From contig JBDRJF010000005.1 in assembly GCA_043815185.1 (NCBI GenBank), forward strand, positions 3,407 to 67,406: 64,000 nucleotides of DNA, in the 5' to 3' direction. The DNA comes from Candidatus Omnitrophota bacterium. Lineage in GTDB: Bacteria > Omnitrophota > Gorgyraeia > Duberdicusellales > 4484-171. This document shows, piece by piece, positions 4,416 through 62,442 of this stretch. The position numbers were made by a program, and so were the translations under genes. The notes under the pieces were generated by a model. It was not told the origin of the DNA and searched no databases. It saw only the letters and a list, made by a program, of their open reading frames with translations. The first letter of the stretch is position 1. Every line of letters begins with the position of its first letter.

Positions 4416-5342
4416 TTATTTAAGCCTCATCTCCTTTATTTCTCCAGTTTCAGAATCTATACCAACATGTCTTTCTTCTCCGCCTTGCATATTATAAAGA
4501 CTTATAGTTACATAATCTTCTTGCACTGAAATATCGTTGTAATTTATGTTTTTAAACTCTTCGGTTGAGATTCCAAATATTTCAGTTACTTTTTCGGAAT
4601 TATTGGCTAAGGCTTCAAAAGCAGTGTAAACTTTTCGTTGATGTTCTGCAACTTCAGAATTTACCCCGTAAATAAGAGCTGACACCTCATAAGTAGCCTC
4701 ATAAGCTAAATATTCATCTGTAATGACTGCAATGTCAGGGTTTTCTCTCTGATTTATTATGTGTGTTGCTTCATGGGCAATCTTAAATGCCAACCAATTT
4801 GTTTTTTCCTCCTCAGTAACTAAACTTTCAAAGGCATCATAGCCTACAACTATTACACCTGAACCCCTGGGGGCTAAAGCAAGTCCTGGATCATCTAATC
4901 CTTCCAAAAATAATACTGGCACAAATATCCCCTCTGGCAGAATACCATTCGCAATTAGAAAATCATGTGCACCTTTTACAAGATATTCATAGCTATTGGA
5001 GGGAACAAGAGAGTTTTGCAATCTCTCTGCTGACACTCCCCCTAAGATAGTATTTCTATTCAGGGCATCTAATAATTCCTCGAAAGAGAACTTCTGGCCC
5101 TGTAAGAGTATTTCTCCCGGCTCTAATACGTGACTGGGTCCCCATTCGGTTTTTGCGCTTTGAATTTCACTGGTCCCGCCAAAAGGCTGGTATTGCTCCT
5201 CCTGGCCTAAAACATCAGCAGCTTTTTTGTAGCTGCCCTGGACCCTGCGTTTGATATAGACCGACATGGCAATTAAAGCTGTGGCTACTACAGCAATTAA
5301 AAAAGCATACCCCAGAATAGCTTGAGACTTATTTTGCATCAT
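4416..5342 (-). CDS. Pilin-like N-terminus fused to an HExxH (gluzincin-like) putative metallopeptidase domain
   Basis: 308 aa. N-terminus MMQNKSQAILGYAFLIAVVATALIAMSVYIKRRVQG parallels the Flp/TadE-like N-termini at 7788-10870. HEATH at residues 190-194 (nt 4761-4775), then DEYLAYEATYE about 20 aa downstream. 14-nt overlap with the upstream gene. Confidence 0.55.
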   Translation of the reverse strand: MMQNKSQAILGYAFLIAVVATALIAMSVYIKRRVQGSYKKAADVLGQEEQYQPFGGTSEIQSAKTEWGPSHVLEPGEILLQGQKFSFEELLDALNRNTILGGVSAERLQNSLVPSNSYEYLVKGAHDFLIANGILPEGIFVPVLFLEGLDDPGLALAPRGSGVIVVGYDAFESLVTEEEKTNWLAFKIAHEATHIINQRENPDIAVITDEYLAYEATYEVSALIYGVNSEVAEHQRKVYTAFEALANNSEKVTEIFGISTEEFKNINYNDISVQEDYVTISLYNMQGGEERHVGIDSETGEIKEMRLK

Positions 5343-6177
5343 GATAAACTACTGTAATTATAATATCGCCTAAGCCTAAAGAAGTCAAGTCTGGGCCCTC
5401 AAAACCCTCCATTCGAGTAAGATGGATCAGGCAGGCTTTGCCTCCCTGTTTAAACTCTAAACTCACTCCCTCCATGGTTATCCCAGCCATAGCCGCTTTA
5501 GCCTGCTGGGGTATCTTAGGACAAGTAGGGCAATCTTCGACCTTTGATAGATCGTATTGCTCAGAGCCGATAGCTTCCTGATTACTGAGACTCCAGCCTT
5601 GCTGGGGCATCTTCTGAAGATAAAAACCTTTAACTGCTTCTATGCCTCCGCTGGCCATATACCCGGCTTGCAGGCCGGAAGGAGTTTTACGGTAATCTAT
5701 CTGTCGACTCCCGGGATATAGGGGCATAAAATCCAAAGATTTTGGCTTCTCAAACAAACCTAAAGGCTGTCCTTGCTCTGCCCCCAGGCCTTGGGCCTTA
5801 GGGAATTCGCCGACACTAATACTGTAGAAAATAAGCTCTTCGGCCTTAAGCGGAGAGAAGTTTAAAACCAGCATCTGATCCCCTTTAATAAAATTATAGA
5901 CCCGGCCCTGTAAAGGCCCTGGGGCCTGAAGCATTGGTAAATCCAGCTTTCCCCAGCCCTTTTTGCTCAAGTTTTGCTGATAAAACTGGAGAATCTCGCT
6001 TTGGCTCAGAGAAGAACTGTATTGATAAACCGTAAACTGGCTTCCGGATATTTCCTGCTCAGCCTGGCTGGATAAATTAGTCTTAGCCGGTATTGGAAAA
6101 CCAAAGATTTGTGAAAATCCTGAAAAACTGGTTAAAATAAAAAAGACTAAAACAACTGCTACTTTTTTACTATTCAT
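5329..6177 (-). CDS. Secreted protein of unknown function with an internal duplication
   Basis: 282 aa. Signal peptide MNSKKVAVVLVFFILTSFSGFSQ. Two related modules (SEILQFYQQNLSKKGWGKL vs EAVKGFYLQKMPQQGWSLS). Embedded between pseudopilin-like genes. Confidence 0.5.
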   Translation of the reverse strand: MNSKKVAVVLVFFILTSFSGFSQIFGFPIPAKTNLSSQAEQEISGSQFTVYQYSSSLSQSEILQFYQQNLSKKGWGKLDLPMLQAPGPLQGRVYNFIKGDQMLVLNFSPLKAEELIFYSISVGEFPKAQGLGAEQGQPLGLFEKPKSLDFMPLYPGSRQIDYRKTPSGLQAGYMASGGIEAVKGFYLQKMPQQGWSLSNQEAIGSEQYDLSKVEDCPTCPKIPQQAKAAMAGITMEGVSLEFKQGGKACLIHLTRMEGFEGPDLTSLGLGDIIITVVYHDAK

Positions 6178-25149: not shown

Positions 25150-25178
25150 TTGCCTTTATCGAAATTATAGTTTAGAAT
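25150..25178 (+). promoter_or_regulatory. Sigma70-type promoter giving a (near-)leaderless transcript for the HARP gene
   Basis: TTGCCT (25150-25155), 17 nt, TAGAAT (25173-25178). The ATG at 25188 is only 9 nt after the -10 box, with no Shine-Dalgarno. Confidence 0.45.
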
Positions 25179-25187
25179 ATTAAGCAA

Positions 25188-25778
25188 ATGAAAAAATCTC
25201 TAAATATAGTCTTAGATACTAGTATTTTTGTTAATCCTGATTCCCGAGTTCATTTCGGGAATACACCCAAGGCAGCTTTCTCTAATTTCTTAGACCACTT
25301 AAAGGATAAAAAACATATTAACTGCTATATCCCTCCCTCAGTATATGAAGAGTTAGCAAAATTCATCGAAAGATTACCCCCGGCAGATAAACTAATTTTA
25401 ATCAACAAAAAACCCCCTGCTTCTTATCAAACCCCGGTCCCAAGCTTATTAGTATATGAATTCATTGAGGAAATGCGCCTAAGAGTCAACAAAGGCCTGC
25501 GAATCGCTGAAAAATATGCCCATAAAGGAATAACCGTGGCCGGGGAGACTAATAAGGAAAAGTACGAAGAATTAATAAAAAGTCTGCGCGGTGAATACCG
25601 CAGTGCTCTGCGCGAAGGAATTATTGACAGCAAAGAAGATTTTGACTTAATCCTTCTGGCCAAAGAAATAAATGCTTATCTCGCTACCTCTGATCTGGGA
25701 TTGGTAAGGTGGGCTCAAAAGTTAGGCCTAACCTGCATCAACGCTTGGGAACTTAAAGAAATAGTGATTAAGCCTTAA
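25188..25778 (+). CDS. RNA-free (protein-only) RNase P of the HARP / UPF0278 PIN-like family
   Basis: 196 aa. [63 protein letters not shown] and [17 protein letters not shown] match blocks I recall from Aquifex Aq_880 and archaeal RNA-ligase-partner homologues ([46 protein letters not shown]). Confidence 0.75.
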   Translation: [196 protein letters not shown]

Positions 25779-38750: not shown

Positions 38751-38757
38751 ATAGCTT

Positions 38758-39906
38758 ATGAAGGAAGAGATTAAGAATCTTAAAGCGGAATTGGAAAAGG
38801 CCCGCTCCCAACTATATGTCTTCTATGAGCTTACCAAGGCTATGCGGAGGACGCTTAGGATTGATGAGATAACCTACATTATTTTAACCGGCTTAACTGC
38901 CCATGAAGGCTTAAGATTTAATCGAGCCGCTATATTTTTTACTGATCAGGAAACTAGAAAAATCAATGGCTTTATGGGTATCGGACCTATAGATAATCAA
39001 GAAGCAACTCGAATATGGCACAGCATCGAAAAGGAAAAAAAGAATCTCTATGACTTAATCGATAATTACCATCACATAAAGGAAGATAAGGTAAAGCCGC
39101 CTTTTATGAAACTGATTCAATCCCTTTCTTTTCCTCTTGATAAGAAAGGTGGATTACTTTTTAATGCACTCTACAAAAAGGATGTAATTCATATTAGAGG
39201 GGGGGAGAATAAGTTTAAGAACGATCCCCTAATCAAGAGTTTAAATCTAGAAGAATTCCTTATTGTTCCGCTATGGATAAAAGGTAAGCCTAACGGGGTA
39301 ATGGTGGTGGATAACTATATTACCAAAAACCCGATAAGTGACGATGAGATAAAAATATTTACTATGTTCATGGAGCAAGCTCAAGGGGCCTTGGAGAACT
39401 CTCAGAGTTTTGAAAGTACCTTAACCCAGGCTCACACCGATCCCCTAACCTCCCTCTGGAACTACGGTTATTTTCAATATCGGCTCGATGAGGAGATAGC
39501 TAAAACCAACTCCAGCCTTCTGCCTTTATCGGTAATGATGGTCGATATTGATAATTTTAAAAAATTCAATGATAGCTACGGACACATCCAGGGTGATGAA
39601 GCCTTAAGAAGAATAAGCCAAATCTTTAAGGAAAATTGCCGTAAAATTGATATCTTATGCCGTTACGGCGGGGAAGAATTCTCGTTGATTTTACCAGCTA
39701 ACAATAAAAAAGAAGCAGCATTGCTGGCTGAGCGAATAAGAAAATCTGTTGAGGGCAAGACAATCTTAAACAACAATTTCACCATAAGTATCGGCATCGC
39801 CTCTTATCCTAAAGATTCAACTAATAAAATAACCCTAATCCAGAAGGCTGATCAAGCTCTCTACGCGGCTAAAAGAGCAGGGAAAAATAGGGTAGTTCTG
39901 GCCTAG
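38758..39906 (+). CDS. GAF-domain diguanylate cyclase (GGDEF)
   Basis: 382 aa. N-terminal coiled coil plus a GAF-like region, and a C-terminal GGDEF domain with active-site GGEEF and DIDNFKKFNDSYGH. Confidence 0.85.
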   Translation: MKEEIKNLKAELEKARSQLYVFYELTKAMRRTLRIDEITYIILTGLTAHEGLRFNRAAIFFTDQETRKINGFMGIGPIDNQEATRIWHSIEKEKKNLYDLIDNYHHIKEDKVKPPFMKLIQSLSFPLDKKGGLLFNALYKKDVIHIRGGENKFKNDPLIKSLNLEEFLIVPLWIKGKPNGVMVVDNYITKNPISDDEIKIFTMFMEQAQGALENSQSFESTLTQAHTDPLTSLWNYGYFQYRLDEEIAKTNSSLLPLSVMMVDIDNFKKFNDSYGHIQGDEALRRISQIFKENCRKIDILCRYGGEEFSLILPANNKKEAALLAERIRKSVEGKTILNNNFTISIGIASYPKDSTNKITLIQKADQALYAAKRAGKNRVVLA

Positions 39907-55836: not shown

Positions 55837-57177
55837 CTATTTTCTTAAACTTTTAATAATCCGGTAGGTCTTATCTAAGGCCTCGATGATCTGGCTCTTT
55901 TTTATACATAGCGGTAGGAAAAAATAGACAATGCTGCCTAAGGGGCGCAAAATAAGCCCTTGTTGCAATCCCCTTTGGTAAACCTCTAGCCCTATCCTCT
56001 TCTTTAGGCCAAAAGGCTTTTTTGTCTGCTTATTCTTTACCAACTCTATTGCCCCAATCATACCTATATATCTTACATCACCGACTAAAGCGAGATCTCT
56101 AAAAGCTTCTAATTTTTTATGAAATACCGGAATAAGTTTATTGATTTTTTTTAGAGTATTCTCCTGCCTGTATAGCTTTAAACTGGCTAAAGCTGCGGCA
56201 CAGGAAATAGGATTAGCTGTATAGGTATGGCCGTGATAAAAAGTTTTTCGCTTCTGATAATCAGCGTAAAAAGCTTTATAGACTTTATTGGTAGTCAAGG
56301 TTACTCCCAGGGGAAGATATCCGGAAGTTATTCCCTTGGAAAGGCAGATAAAATCCGGCTTAACTCTCGCATATTCGCAGGCAAACATTTTTCCGGTCCG
56401 GCCAAAACCACTGGCTACTTCATCTAAGATTAAATGAATATTATATTTCTTAGCTAGCTGGGCAGCTTTCTTAAGATAAAGAGAGGGGTAAATAATCATC
56501 CCTCCGGCAGCCATAACCATTGGCTCTAAAATCAAAGCAGCAATCTCCTTACTTTTTTTCTTTAATCTAGCTTCTAAAGAGTTTACACACTCTATGTTAC
56601 AGGTAGATTTATCTTTTCCTGCCGGACACCGATAGCAATAAGGTGAAGGAGCTTTAAAGCTTTTAAAGAAAAGGGGTGAGAAGACTTTATTGAACAAGCC
56701 CACTCCGCTGACACTCATCGCTCCCAAAGTATCGCCATGATAAGCAGAATCCAGGGATAGGAATTTTGTCTTCTCCCTTTTTCCCCTATTCTGCCAATAT
56801 TGAAATGACATCTTCAATGCTACTTCAACTGCGGTTGAACCATTGTCAGAGAAGAAAACTTTAGTTAAATTATCAGGAGTAATTGCCACCAGCTGTTCTG
56901 CTAATTTAATCGCCGGCTTATGGGTAAAACCGGCAAATAAGACATGCTCAAAGGAATTTAGCTGCCTCTTAATAGCCTTATTTATCTCCGGGTGGTTATG
57001 GCCGTGGATATTGCACCACCAGCTGGATATAGGATCATAATAACAATTCCCCTGATCATCATAGAGCTTTATTCCCTTGGCTCTCTCGATTAGAATCGGA
57101 GGAAACTGCTCACAATCCTTCATCTGAGTATAAGGATGCCAAATATATTTCAGGTCTTTTTTAATCCAACTATCCAT
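55837..57177 (-). CDS. bioA: Adenosylmethionine-8-amino-7-oxononanoate aminotransferase
   Basis: 446 aa class-III aminotransferase. YHGDT, LILDEVASGFGRTG, LSKGITSGYLPL. Confidence 0.9.
   Translation of the reverse strand: MDSWIKKDLKYIWHPYTQMKDCEQFPPILIERAKGIKLYDDQGNCYYDPISSWWCNIHGHNHPEINKAIKRQLNSFEHVLFAGFTHKPAIKLAEQLVAITPDNLTKVFFSDNGSTAVEVALKMSFQYWQNRGKREKTKFLSLDSAYHGDTLGAMSVSGVGLFNKVFSPLFFKSFKAPSPYCYRCPAGKDKSTCNIECVNSLEARLKKKSKEIAALILEPMVMAAGGMIIYPSLYLKKAAQLAKKYNIHLILDEVASGFGRTGKMFACEYARVKPDFICLSKGITSGYLPLGVTLTTNKVYKAFYADYQKRKTFYHGHTYTANPISCAAALASLKLYRQENTLKKINKLIPVFHKKLEAFRDLALVGDVRYIGMIGAIELVKNKQTKKPFGLKKRIGLEVYQRGLQQGLILRPLGSIVYFFLPLCIKKSQIIEALDKTYRIIKSLRK
57145..57177. repeat. Direct repeat copy 1 (true bioA 5' end)
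   Basis: atatttcaggtcttttttaatccaactatccat matches 58007-58039 at 30 of 33 positions. Confidence 0.85.
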
Positions 57178-57269
57178 TTGCTGCTATTATAGACAAAAAA
57201 CCCCGCATTATCAAGACACCAAAACATCCTCCAAAAAGCTACCGAATTGAATATTAATAATAGCAAGAT

Positions 57270-57280
57270 TGTGTTATAAT
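57270..57280 (+). promoter_or_regulatory. Extended -10 element TGTGTTATAAT for the cassette genes (leaderless)
   Basis: TGTGTTATAAT at 57270-57280. The ATG of the small ORF at 57289 is 8 nt after the -10 box. No convincing -35. Confidence 0.4.
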
Positions 57281-57288
57281 TATTTAAT

Positions 57289-57465
57289 ATGAAAAGTGAC
57301 CAATTGCGAAAACACCATATAGCATCATTTACTAAATTGAGCATATATGATCGTCTATTCTGGGCTTTCTCCCAAAATAGATTTCTCTCCCAATTCATGA
57401 ATACCGAAGCAAAAGATATCAACAGAAATATCCGCAAACATGGCAAAAAATACTTCGGATCCTAA
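57289..57465 (+). CDS. Small 58-aa ORF upstream of and overlapping the nucleotidyltransferase gene (candidate antitoxin-like partner), not in ORF track
   Basis: Manual translation: MKSDQLRKHHIASFTKLSIYDRLFWAFSQNRFLSQFMNTEAKDINRNIRKHGKKYFGS*. 26-nt out-of-frame overlap with 57440-57934. No family recognised. Confidence 0.35.
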   Translation: MKSDQLRKHHIASFTKLSIYDRLFWAFSQNRFLSQFMNTEAKDINRNIRKHGKKYFGS

Positions 57466-57934
57466 AATTTGGTATAAAATAATCAATAAATTTAATGAAA
57501 CAAAATTAAATTATGTCTTAGTTGGCGGTGCCGCTTTAATCATCCATGGACTGCCACGGAGCACTTTAGATATTGATATTTATATTCCTGCCAAAGAAGA
57601 AGTCTTAAATAAACTTTTTAAAATTGCGGATTCTTTAGGGTTACAAACTGAACAAAAATCCATACTCGCAATTAGCCATTCACCAGAGTTATTTGTTAAC
57701 CAATGGATTTGCTTTTCCTATAAGGGGCAAGATATTTTAGATGTCTTCCTGTCCAGCGAAAAAGAATTCAATAAACTCTACACTAATTCGGAACAGAAAA
57801 AAGACAAAACCACTTCAGTCAGAGTAGCTTCTCTTAAAGACATTGAAATGATGAAAAAAAAGAGCGGCCGTCCTATAGATTTAGTCGACCTTAAATTTAT
57901 CAAAGAAACAAAGAAATACAAAAAACCTGATTAA
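57440..57934 (+). CDS. Nucleotidyltransferase-fold protein (minimal NTase, toxin-antitoxin-like family)
   Basis: 164 aa. NTase motif VLVGGAALIIHGLPRSTLDIDIYI (G[GS]...DxD). C-terminal VASLKDIEMMKKKSGRPIDLVDLKFI is typical of small NTase-fold proteins. Confidence 0.55.
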   Translation: MAKNTSDPKIWYKIINKFNETKLNYVLVGGAALIIHGLPRSTLDIDIYIPAKEEVLNKLFKIADSLGLQTEQKSILAISHSPELFVNQWICFSYKGQDILDVFLSSEKEFNKLYTNSEQKKDKTTSVRVASLKDIEMMKKKSGRPIDLVDLKFIKETKKYKKPD

Positions 57935-57988
57935 ATTCTAACAACTCATTTCACCTAACCCAAAAGCTGCGCTTTTGTGCCGGTGAAT

Positions 57989-58039
57989 TCAAATGTTAGA
58001 AATACGATATTTTAGGTCTTTTTTAATCCACTTATCCAT
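57989..58039 (-). pseudogene. bioA: Remnant of the bioA 5' end (16 codons then stop)
   Basis: Minus strand atggataagtggattaaaaaagacctaaaatat... = MDKWIKKDLKYRISNI*, compared with the true BioA N-terminus MDSWIKKDLKYIW. Lies 10 nt downstream of the bioD stop. Confidence 0.7.
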
Positions 58040-58049
58040 TCTTCAATTA

Positions 58050-58745
58050 TTACTTTAAATTAGATAATATCTTTTTACCTATTTTTCTAAAACTTTTATG
58101 TAATCTATCTGTGTCTTTAGTCCCAGGCAAACTTCCTGAAGACTTCTGGCCGCTGATTGCCTCGATTATCTTAGGGTTATCTTTGAGAATTATATTGCTT
58201 GTTTTACCCTTTAAATTATTAAATACAATTCCGGCTATTTTCAGCTTTCTGGCCTTAAGGGCTTCTATGGTCAAAAGGGTATGGTTAATCGCTCCTAATT
58301 TATTACCAACTACAACTAATACTGAAAGGTTTAGCTCCTTAGCTACATCGATTACTAATTTCCGCTTATTCAAAGGAACTAAGGCTCCGCCTACTCCCTC
58401 AACTACTACAAAGTCAAAAGCTTTTTCCAAAAACTTAAAGTTCTTCTTTATCCTTTCTATACTTATCTTTCTCTTCTCTAGGCTTGAAGCCAGATGCGGA
58501 GAAGAGGGAAATTTAAAGCGATAAGGAGAAATATTGGCCAGATAATTCTTTAACTCTTGTTTTTTCTTATTGAGTAACTTTAGATGCAGGCTGACATCTT
58601 TGGAAAACCCTACAGAACCGGCCTCAACCCACTTCTGAGTTATAACTTTATAGCCCTGATCAGCTAAGAACTTGGCTAATAACCCGGTTACGATGGTCTT
58701 CCCTACTCCGGTATCGGTCCCAATAACAAAAATCCCACTCATCAT
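58050..58745 (-). CDS. bioD: Dethiobiotin synthetase
   Basis: 231 aa. FVIGTDTGVGKT P-loop; VVEGVGG. Confidence 0.85.
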   Translation of the reverse strand: MMSGIFVIGTDTGVGKTIVTGLLAKFLADQGYKVITQKWVEAGSVGFSKDVSLHLKLLNKKKQELKNYLANISPYRFKFPSSPHLASSLEKRKISIERIKKNFKFLEKAFDFVVVEGVGGALVPLNKRKLVIDVAKELNLSVLVVVGNKLGAINHTLLTIEALKARKLKIAGIVFNNLKGKTSNIILKDNPKIIEAISGQKSSGSLPGTKDTDRLHKSFRKIGKKILSNLK

Positions 58746-62341: not shown

Positions 62342-62442
62342 ATTGACATTTACCTCTATTGTCATCCATTTTAGCACTAAAGGTTTACAATTACAACCCC
62401 GCTTGCACACCCGGTGTGTAGGTATTGGTTGGGACTTAATTT

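Follow-up and report, generated by a model that had tools for sequence, protein, structure and literature searches.

A stretch of 64,000 nucleotides from a Candidatus Omnitrophota bacterium (contig JBDRJF010000005.1), hereafter the window, contains a bio operon in which a small plus-strand gene cassette lies between bioD and bioA. The insertion of this module is real. As for its origin, we favor, with a probability of roughly 55%, a reading in which the 829 bp at 57178-58006 represent part of an integron-type cassette array without an integrase, resembling the solitary cassettes known as SALINs, and in which the 33- or 34-nt direct repeat of the bioA start bounding the insert comes from a bioA start that was carried by the incoming DNA. 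The insert holds one complete cassette together with 76 nt on the bioA side that contain an outward-facing promoter.

The insertion was recognized from a duplicated gene start at the end of the gene order birA-bioB-bioF-bioH-bioC-bioD, where we annotated the following features.

55837-57177, minus strand: live bioA, encoding adenosylmethionine-8-amino-7-oxononanoate transaminase (446 amino acids; Pfam Aminotran_3, E = 2e-105)
57145-57178: duplicated bioA start, live copy (34 nt), with the derived states AAG to AGT (K3S) and CTA to CTG
58007-58040: relic copy of the bioA start, the putative original resident 5' end, 10 nt after the bioD stop
58050-58745, minus strand: bioD, encoding dethiobiotin synthetase (Pfam AAA_26, E = 5e-42), the gene that closes the upstream portion of the split bio operon

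The two copies of the bioA start (57145-57177 and 58007-58039) are identical at 30 of 33 nt, or at 31 of 34 when the base before the ATG is included (57145-57178 versus 58007-58040), and they are spaced 862 nt apart. The relic opens a dead minus-strand reading frame of 16 codons (57989-58039; translation, MDKWIKKDLKYRISNI followed by a stop), and exactly 10 nt (58040-58049) separate the bioD stop from its ATG at 58039. The protein encoded by live bioA is 100% identical to an Omnitrophota protein from a metagenome-assembled genome at NCBI (P0121), and the next best protein is 89% identical. P0121 emerged from a homology search; exact look-ups of the proteins encoded by bioA and the DUF6036 gene described below gave no hit. 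It is conceivable that nothing was inserted, that the arrangement is ancestral, and that the likeness of the second bioA start arose by chance. The AT richness of the region speaks for this, and nothing else does. However, in 40 first-order Markov simulations of the 3.5-kb region, the top 33-nt match anywhere scored 22 to 27, and the observed 30 of 33 is therefore not a product of chance. Moreover, the relic follows the bioD stop by 10 nt as bioA does in seven relatives, and the cassette core is found elsewhere at 94% identity. We consider a coincidence refuted, with a residual probability that is close to nil.

To place the junction in a comparative framework, we scanned the species genomes of GTDB for bioA, which yielded approximately 60 Omnitrophota-like loci; 140 loci, identified here by L numbers, were fetched overall. 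An empty site, in which the bioD stop is followed by 10 nt and the bioA ATG, was found in seven relatives: L001 to L005 and L057, which are closer relatives from the GTDB scan, and L140, which was added later. The relic junction in the window equals this empty site base for base (GGTAAAAAGATATTATCTAATTTAAAGTAATAATTGAAGA joined to ATGGATAAGTGG...). Two further loci (L008 and L011) are also empty, with 13 nt from the end of the bioD match to the ATG. The original prediction, made from the letters of the window, held that a small module had been acquired at this position, and the seven empty sites and the relic that reproduces their junction and layout exactly bear it out. Its coordinates for the relic, the real bioA start, and the 30-of-33 match were all reproduced, as were those for the plus-strand reading frame of 58 amino acids, the nucleotidyltransferase-fold gene, the promoter, and a hairpin at 57961-57977. 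The statement that the cassette pair comprises the only plus-strand genes of the region holds for convincing genes between about 45 kb and 64 kb. What had been missed is that the hairpin is the tip of a larger palindrome, that a minus-strand promoter precedes live bioA, and that the substitutions in the repeat are all on the live copy.

The bioD-bioA spacer takes other forms as well. In L051 (positions 5910-6003; Candidatus Makaraimicrobium thalassicum, QNCM01000006), it consists of about four tandem copies of CCACTCCGGGAGTAG, and in L014, L016, L050, and L052 the spacers are expanded and structured, with lengths of 160 to 1,130 nt. These expanded spacers show that the junction is variable across the phylum.

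The distribution of differences between the two bioA starts is informative about their history. Relatives have AAG or other codons at codon 3 and CTA or TTA at codon 9, like the relic, and a single nt separates the relic from the bioA starts found in L004 and L005. The exact states of the live copy (AGT and CTG) were not seen in any relative examined. Thus, all three differences sit on the live copy, while the ancestral sequence is preserved in the relic. In addition, DNA that is absent from the empty sites precedes the live copy, as listed here.

57178-57253: left flank of the cassette core (76 nt), not common to other cassette copies and holding the new bioA promoter
57186-57214, minus strand: predicted sigma-70-like promoter TTGATA-17-TATAAT facing bioA, matching the consensus at 11 of 12 positions

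This promoter lies directly before live bioA and bears on the question, raised by the original prediction, of whether bioA has a promoter of its own. Only 8 nt separate the end of the -10 box from the ATG, a Shine-Dalgarno sequence is lacking, and the same 8-nt spacing is seen at the cassette's own promoter (TGTGTTATAAT). Judging from this spacing, bioA probably has a separate transcript that is leaderless. No BirA-operator-like sequence was recognized in the new bioA promoter. Searched as a 20-nt pattern among the 140 loci, the junction from the -10 box to the ATG occurred in the window, L139, and L007 only. In L139, the closest bioA relative, the homologous junction (a slash marks the joint here and below) reads CCCTTGTAATATCGGCTTGTTTATCTATAATAGCACCAA/ATG (TCTATAATAGCACCAA/ATG), and in L007 it reads TTCTTGTAATATCGACCTCTTTATTTATAATATCATCAA/ATG (TTTATAATATCATCAA/ATG). 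The convincing promoter homology covers about 40 nt from the -35 box to the ATG and was confirmed with L139. We dropped the proposal that the whole divergent promoter region is homologous between the window and L007, as the similarity was marginal (reached in 7 of 1,000 and 156 of 1,000 shuffles). In a bioA tree, the three lineages with this promoter type do not group apart from the empty-site lineages but are interspersed with them. The left flank may hold the decayed end of an earlier attC site (GCTACCGAATTGAATA). A decayed right-hand attC copy across 57178-57253 was rejected, since the similarity was not significant.

The gap between bioD and bioA in L007 is occupied by a different cassette, which carries a PNPOx_N family gene in the same place and orientation as the cassette in the window. 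Behind this gene comes CTCCTAAC AACTT..., a sequence homologous to the R'' box and adjoining spacer of the attC-like site described below. L007 (Candidatus Susulua stagnicola, JAVCBZ010000063) also has a second, independent duplication at the bioA start (4991-5024 and 5956-6010). There, an element of 961 nt, which has inverted repeats of 39 nt (5057-5095 and 5903-5941) and a gene for a Y1 transposase of the IS200-like type (5243-5911), is flanked by a perfect 25-nt repeat composed of the bioA -10 box, the ATG, and 10 nt. The repeat is about 55 nt long if a 21-nt gap in one copy is allowed.

The original prediction attributed the repeat in the window to a mechanism that duplicated its target, and this part did not hold up. 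We consider target-site duplication unlikely for several reasons. No transposase, integrase, or terminal inverted repeats were found in the insert, and no flanking duplication was found around the cassette copies at other loci (L081, L085, and others). The outer junctions are off the attC cores, and canonical integrase reactions duplicate nothing. The live copy lies next to a foreign promoter, in a context that is common to other lineages, and the differences are all on this copy, which is the constrained one. A related possibility is that the target was duplicated locally, either in tandem and split later or through staggered breaks of 33 to 34 nt that were filled in, which would amount to a very long target-site duplication by an unknown enzyme. 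A direct repeat does bound the insert, and the Y1-transposase element of L007 sits in the same gene start within its own perfect repeat. Yet the missing machinery and the unflanked copies count against local duplication in the same way. In addition, repeat lengths of 33 to 34 nt versus 25 nt (or up to 55 nt) misfit a fixed stagger. Fill-in also predicts an ancestral context for the live copy, whereas the observed copy has a foreign promoter and all three differences. Finally, IS200-type transposases, to our knowledge, make no target duplications, which weighs against this explanation. Overall, local duplication seems to us quite improbable.

We infer a different route, under which the relic next to bioD would be the resident bioA start and the live start would have come in together with the new DNA, its promoter already attached. 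The donor would be a related lineage that already had the cassette and the promoter upstream of bioA. From it, DNA of the form bioA'-promoter-cassette-attC-(11 nt) would have recombined homologously in bioA and would have been joined illegitimately after nt 33 of the resident bioA. The most likely process is homology-facilitated illegitimate recombination or its single-crossover variant. One-sided homologous integration, including a single crossover of a circularized fragment, can duplicate a homologous segment (PMC3240628). Because the bioD-bioA spacer is only 10 nt long and selection would keep both genes intact, a junction that spares them must fall in the spacer or in the first bases of bioA, a constraint that also explains the independent repeat in L007. 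The imported promoter would now drive bioA separately from birA-bioB-bioF-bioH-bioC-bioD. Recombination between the direct repeats would permit exact loss of the insert, and such loss may explain the patchy distribution across lineages.

The insert itself is organized as a gene cassette with the following parts.

57254-57950, plus strand: cassette core (697 bp), with the promoter, the gene pair, and the first arm of the attC-like site
57270-57280, plus strand: extended -10 promoter TGTGTTATAAT, 8 nt before the orf58 ATG, as read from the sequence
57289-57465, plus strand: orf58, a two-helix protein of 58 amino acids and candidate antitoxin or partner, with a 26-nt overlap with the next gene
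57440-57934, plus strand: DUF6036 nucleotidyltransferase (164 amino acids; PF19502, E = 5e-8), a candidate MenT1-like toxin
57936-58001, plus strand: attC-like site (66 nt) with a putative crossover at G57995/T57996
58002-58006: linker ATACG (5 nt), which together with 57996-58001 reads TTAGAAATACG, like the first bases of a following cassette

The same cassette recurs at other loci. At the DNA level, the core is the shared unit, with 94% identity to L081, an era locus; homology begins at window position 57254 with L081 and at window position 57250 with L128. The cassette promoter is kept in both of these loci and, as TATGATATAAT, in L124. Homologues of the gene pair numbered 138 at E ≤ 0.001, and among the 120 listed the identity was at least 58%. 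An intact orf58 homologue is present in 24 loci (49 to 90% identity) and always overlaps the start of the nucleotidyltransferase gene. The contexts of these copies are mutually unrelated and number more than 20 for the core. The pair lies between era and a gene of 423 to 530 amino acids in L081 and 10 further contigs, in a larC/cupin context adjoining a tRNA-Met gene in L086, in an M23/PfkB context beside thiamine genes in L121, in L123, and beside nifU in L124 to L127. No close DUF6036 relative was found in the plasmid and phage collections.

Two observations concern the surroundings of these copies. In L086 (4614-4835; Joint Genome Institute [JGI] Ga0452209_000303), the tRNA-Met gene (4614-4690) stands beside the orf58-DUF6036 pair, and a perfect copy of its last 21 nt and the adjoining 8 nt downstream lies at 4807-4835. 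This second 29-nt copy ends 14 nt before the orf58 ATG and looks like the attL/attR scar of an integrative element. G+C-rich hairpin repeats occur beside cassettes and at a contig end (L128:1-60 and L124:3100-3150; GCAGACGTCCTACTTTCCCC... and GGGACAGCCCTTGCGGCTGTCC). These may be elements of the repetitive extragenic palindromic type associated with Y1 transposase genes.

Downstream of the gene pair, the previously noted hairpin (caaaagc-tgc-gcttttg, 57961-57977) forms the tip of an imperfect palindrome of 66 nt with three stems (57936-58001). It begins 2 nt past the DUF6036 stop, an arrangement shared with L128 and L085, and reads TTCTAAC(A), ACTCAT, TTCACC, hairpin, GGTGAA, TTCAAA, (T)GTTAGAA. 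We assigned these segments to the boxes R'' (TTCTAAC[A]), L'' (TTCACC), L' (GGTGAA), and R' ([T]GTTAGAA), separated by two unpaired spacers of 6 nt. TTCTAAC (57936-57942) is fully complementary to GTTAGAA (57995-58001), and each matches its consensus, RYYYAAC or GTTRRRY, at six of seven positions. As single-stranded DNA, the site folds into an 8-bp stem that is followed by a 6-by-6 internal loop, then by a 6-bp stem, a further internal loop, and a hairpin of 7 bp; the z scores of the folds are -5.1 and -5.9. In L128, the stems are kept, with one compensatory pair and with substitutions in the unpaired parts. A pattern scan identified no other such site in the 64 kb, a strict attC-pattern scan of the related loci returned nothing further, and an Rfam scan of 56900-58300 gave no match. 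Published attC sites combine RYYYAAC and GTTRRRY boxes with L boxes, a central spacer that stays unpaired, and a terminal structure that varies (PMC5027507). Because its boxes, fold, and spacer match that definition, we regard the palindrome as attC-like. Its assignment to attC is provisional and draws on architecture, comparison, and the related array described below.

Could the palindrome be something other than attC? Under one alternative, the gene pair would be a toxin-antitoxin islet with a bidirectional terminator that was moved by general recombination, and the likeness to integrons would be convergent. Consistent with this, the genes on either side of the site converge, and a terminator is expected at such a position. 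The complete palindrome is found downstream in just three or four of about 20 lineages with the gene pair, and L081, L086, and L091 keep the first arm alone. An integrase was not seen in a crude screen, and the site in L085 folds no better than shuffled sequence. On the other hand, neither strand has a T-run after the hairpin, and a terminator scan did not call the palindrome. The R boxes with their conserved AAC and GTT triplets, the unpaired spacer, and the second stem are as in attC. Lastly, an array in a related population gains or loses a cassette exactly at such sites. For these reasons, we think it doubtful that the palindrome is a terminator.

That array is found in L124 to L127, four contigs from one metagenomic population in which orf58-DUF6036 forms one unit of a series of cassettes with an architecture like that of the window site. 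Compared with L124 and L125, L126 and L127 have an extra cassette of 1.68 kb that encodes an N6/N4 methylase and a BglII-like endonuclease (L124:3570-3585 versus L126:1885-3585; JGI Ga0366834_1006562 and Ga0366833_1018989). This restriction-modification cassette starts after ...CTCAACT/TTAGAC, ends with GCCTAAC AACGC ...CCGCTGAGT TTGAAC T/TTAGAC, and is bounded by a 10-nt core repeat (AACTTTAGAC), such that it was gained or lost exactly at AACT/TTAGAC core sites. The orf58-DUF6036 unit is the next but one cassette and is preceded by ...GGTGGT TCAAAC G/TTAGAT. In a hand alignment, the L arm of the restriction-modification site in L126 has one unpaired A (ACTACAGCGG versus CCGCTGAGT). Since this array moves cassettes at such core sites, the window site is more than a resemblance. 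The array also holds a Y1_Tnp fragment, and no integrase was called within 4 kb in L124 to L127. [quoted passage not shown] Solitary cassettes and their imprecise excision have been documented (bioRxiv 10.1101/2022.09.11.507474). In L081, an L'-R' half-site lies to the left of the cassette. We had considered it a sign of circular permutation, with marginal similarity (P ~ 0.04), and dropped that idea because neighboring attC sites in the L124 array resemble each other; the half-site probably marks where a preceding attC ends.

A second lineage, represented by L128 and L129, allowed us to examine the age of the insertion. It has the same right-hand order of cassette, attC, linker, relic, 10 nt, and bioD, with the junction at the same base as in the window (...GTCAGAAATAAA/ATATTTTAGG); at the linker position, L128 reads TCAGAAATAAA. 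Identities between L128 and the window differ among parts of the locus.

Cassette promoter: 97.4% identity
orf58: 94.7% identity
DUF6036 gene: 98.4% identity
attC: 76% identity
Relic and spacer: 86% identity
bioD: 81% identity

Thus, the coding core (57250-57934 in the window versus 176-860 in L128) is 95 to 98% identical, and the flanks are 76 to 86% identical. A shared junction amid diverged attC, relic, and bioD sequences indicates that the junction, and by this comparison the insertion event, is old. The high identity of the core implies that the coding part of the cassette was recently replaced by an allele circulating between lineages, or that the toxin-antitoxin-like genes alone were transferred. 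The view that the event was not recent is therefore upheld by the divergence of L128 and L129; the three substitutions that had been offered as evidence for it do not date the event, because on the simplest reading the second bioA start came with the incoming DNA.

Several observations weigh against an integron-type fragment whose repeat was brought in with it. A donor state, with the cassette and promoter upstream of a relic-less bioA, was not seen among the loci examined. A mosaic-identity test for a donor tract along bioA was uninformative, the nearest relative being about 86% identical in nucleotides, and clear microhomology was not found at 58006/58007. In the attC-like site, the first base of R'' and the last base of R' are off consensus, though they pair with each other, and the L stem has an asymmetric 5-by-4 loop in place of a clear bulged (extrahelical) base; both features temper the assignment to attC. 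A crude regular-expression screen of the 64 kb for open reading frames of at least 150 amino acids with tyrosine-recombinase motifs found none. For an old event, the window relic is pristine, with 0 to 1 changes versus about 5 in L128, an asymmetry that is not statistically significant. The match of the nucleotidyltransferase to Pfam AbiEii (E = 0.03; 14.7 bits) is below the cut-off of 22.5. Finally, both insert ends (57177/57178 and 58006/58007) are off the G/TT core, the latter being an illegitimate junction. It follows from these ends that an integron integrase did not place the insert in one canonical step.

It is possible that an integrase nonetheless did everything. The fragment would have been excised imprecisely via attC and an attG-like site in the 5' end of bioA, and the composite circle, with promoter and bioA start, would have reinserted site specifically in a naive bioA, so that the repeat copies are attachment sites. 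In experiments, cassettes do insert at genomic attG sites and excise at nearby genomic sites. The bioA start contains a core-like TTTTAGGTC (plus strand, 58010-58018) that resembles the T/TTAGAC cores of L124 and L126 and is altered to TTTCAGGTC in the live copy, and the same junction occurs in two lineages. However, the insert junctions are not at a G/TT or G/WT crossover in the expected register. There are 16 nt (TTAGAAATACGATATT) between the attC crossover G and the TTAGG motif, and the duplication runs 5 to 6 nt past that motif. Insertion by an integrase duplicates nothing unless the circle already carries the segment. The L128 junction is better explained by common descent, given 76% identity in attC versus 98% in the coding core. 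We therefore view an origin by integrase alone as unlikely.

We also entertain, as a tentative idea with a low probability, that the 5' end of bioA is a specific and recurrent attachment site for mobile DNA in this Omnitrophota clade, with a portable module of promoter and bioA start. The identical junction in two lineages whose flanks have diverged by about 20%, the independent 25-nt repeat in L007, and the presence of TTTTAGGTC in the repeat, mutated in the live copy, would fit such a site. If this were true, the module would rebuild bioA as a leaderless transcript, and the repeat would make insertion precisely reversible. The agent would then be an unidentified site-specific recombinase, such as an integron integrase acting on an attG-like site, and not rare illegitimate recombination.

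Returning to the cassette that we favor as integron derived, we asked what its two genes might do. An AlphaFold model of the DUF6036 protein (predicted local distance difference test score [pLDDT], 89.5) had its best PDB match to the fold of MenT1/MenAT1 (E = 2e-6; template modeling [TM] score, 0.67). Further matches were to TM1012, LnuA, and ANT(2'')-Ia, for an overall range of TM scores of 0.6 to 0.68. The protein has a G29-G30 ... D44-x-D46 motif and a third acidic residue, D101. Across 30 DUF6036 homologues, D44, D46, and D101 do not vary, G29 hardly varies, and the consensus retains G30. The modeled orf58 product has two helices (pLDDT, 78). It gave no match in Pfam, NCBIfam, PADLOC, or PDB, and a word-indexed protein search returned two homologues only.

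In the MenA1/MenT1 system, the nucleotidyltransferase modifies tRNA ends and thereby blocks translation, and the small protein neutralizes it. From fold and architecture, we infer that the orf58-DUF6036 pair most likely works in a similar way as a toxin and antitoxin. As in MenAT1 (Rv0078B/Rv0078A) and AbiEii/MenT, a minimal nucleotidyltransferase of 160 to 190 amino acids with a GG...DxD motif is encoded here, and MenT1 is the best structural match of the window protein. A small helical protein is encoded just upstream in both cases (68 amino acids for MenA1 versus 58 for orf58); MenA1, a two-helix protein and the antitoxin of MenT1, is usually encoded upstream of menT (PMC10435456). There are differences as well. 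Identity to MenT1 in the structural alignment is about 16%, with marginal sequence similarity, and similarity between MenA1 and orf58 is not detectable by sequence or fold. The PADLOC AbiEii model matched at E ~ 1e-3, but the only significant family match of the window nucleotidyltransferase is to DUF6036 and not to AbiEii/DUF1814. Furthermore, its fold is as close to TM1012, LnuA, and ANT(2'')-Ia, and another substrate is possible. The pair represents a widespread, mobile, and uncharacterized candidate toxin-antitoxin family with a MenT1-like fold.

The locus has parallels in several known systems. Like integron cassettes, it has co-oriented open reading frames and, directly behind them, an imperfect palindrome whose boxes resemble RYYYAAC and GTTRRRY and which also has a spacer that does not pair, another stem, and a variable hairpin. 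Cargo that resembles toxin-antitoxin systems and has its own promoter is common in chromosomal integron arrays, and SALIN-type cassettes likewise have no integrase nearby. In contrast to integron cassettes, the host is an uncultured member of the Omnitrophota, the outer junctions are off core, an extra 76 nt carry an outward promoter, and a 33-nt repeat of a neighboring gene, which is not a product of canonical attC x attI or attC x attG recombination, bounds the insert. Homology-facilitated illegitimate recombination leaves one end in a conserved gene and the other at an illegitimate joint, as proposed here, and partial duplication of the homologous locus is documented for the single-crossover variant. 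However, the documented duplications are 109 to 950 bp long in Escherichia coli versus 33 to 34 bp here, where a donor and microhomology were not found. Integrative elements that replace a gene end, such as islands at tRNA 3' ends and the one suggested in L086, are bounded by a direct repeat of the gene terminus and keep the gene intact with an element-supplied copy of the displaced end, the first as in the window and the second as we propose for it. They differ from the window insert, which involves the 5' end of a protein gene with a new promoter, has a repeat that does not coincide with a recognizable recombinase core, and is one for which no integrase was found.

The finding falls into categories that are already known, namely, a solitary integron-type cassette, a nucleotidyltransferase cargo resembling toxin-antitoxin systems, and homology-anchored acquisition. 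What is new is the phylum and the uncharacterized DUF6036/orf58 pair. The current understanding is not overturned; known mechanisms are extended to a new lineage. In the literature that we searched, integrons or attC are hardly mentioned together with Omnitrophota, and the data suggest that attC-bounded, integron-type cassettes circulate in this uncultured phylum, for which the restriction-modification cassette is direct population evidence. For the host, an essential biosynthetic operon would have tolerated insertion as the incoming DNA brought a promoter along with a new start for the gene. The operon is split, bioA appears to be uncoupled from the remaining operon, and a probable addiction module lies convergent to bioD. 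For annotation, the dead reading frame of 16 codons and the split operon are traps.

Other features of the window are of minor interest. The 64 kb are strongly strand biased, with open reading frames of at least 150 amino acids nearly all on the minus strand; besides the cassette, the only plus-strand genes in positions 1-64000 that look real are at 25176-25775 and 38755-39903. Between birA and bioB, on the minus strand at about 62364-62395, there is a TTGTAAACC-N14-GGATGACAA sequence that resembles the BirA operator, whose consensus we take to be TTGTAAACC...GGTTTACAA. The site falls inside the GTG-start bioB open reading frame that was listed mechanically, and the real bioB start is therefore probably a downstream ATG (MTIEVNV...).

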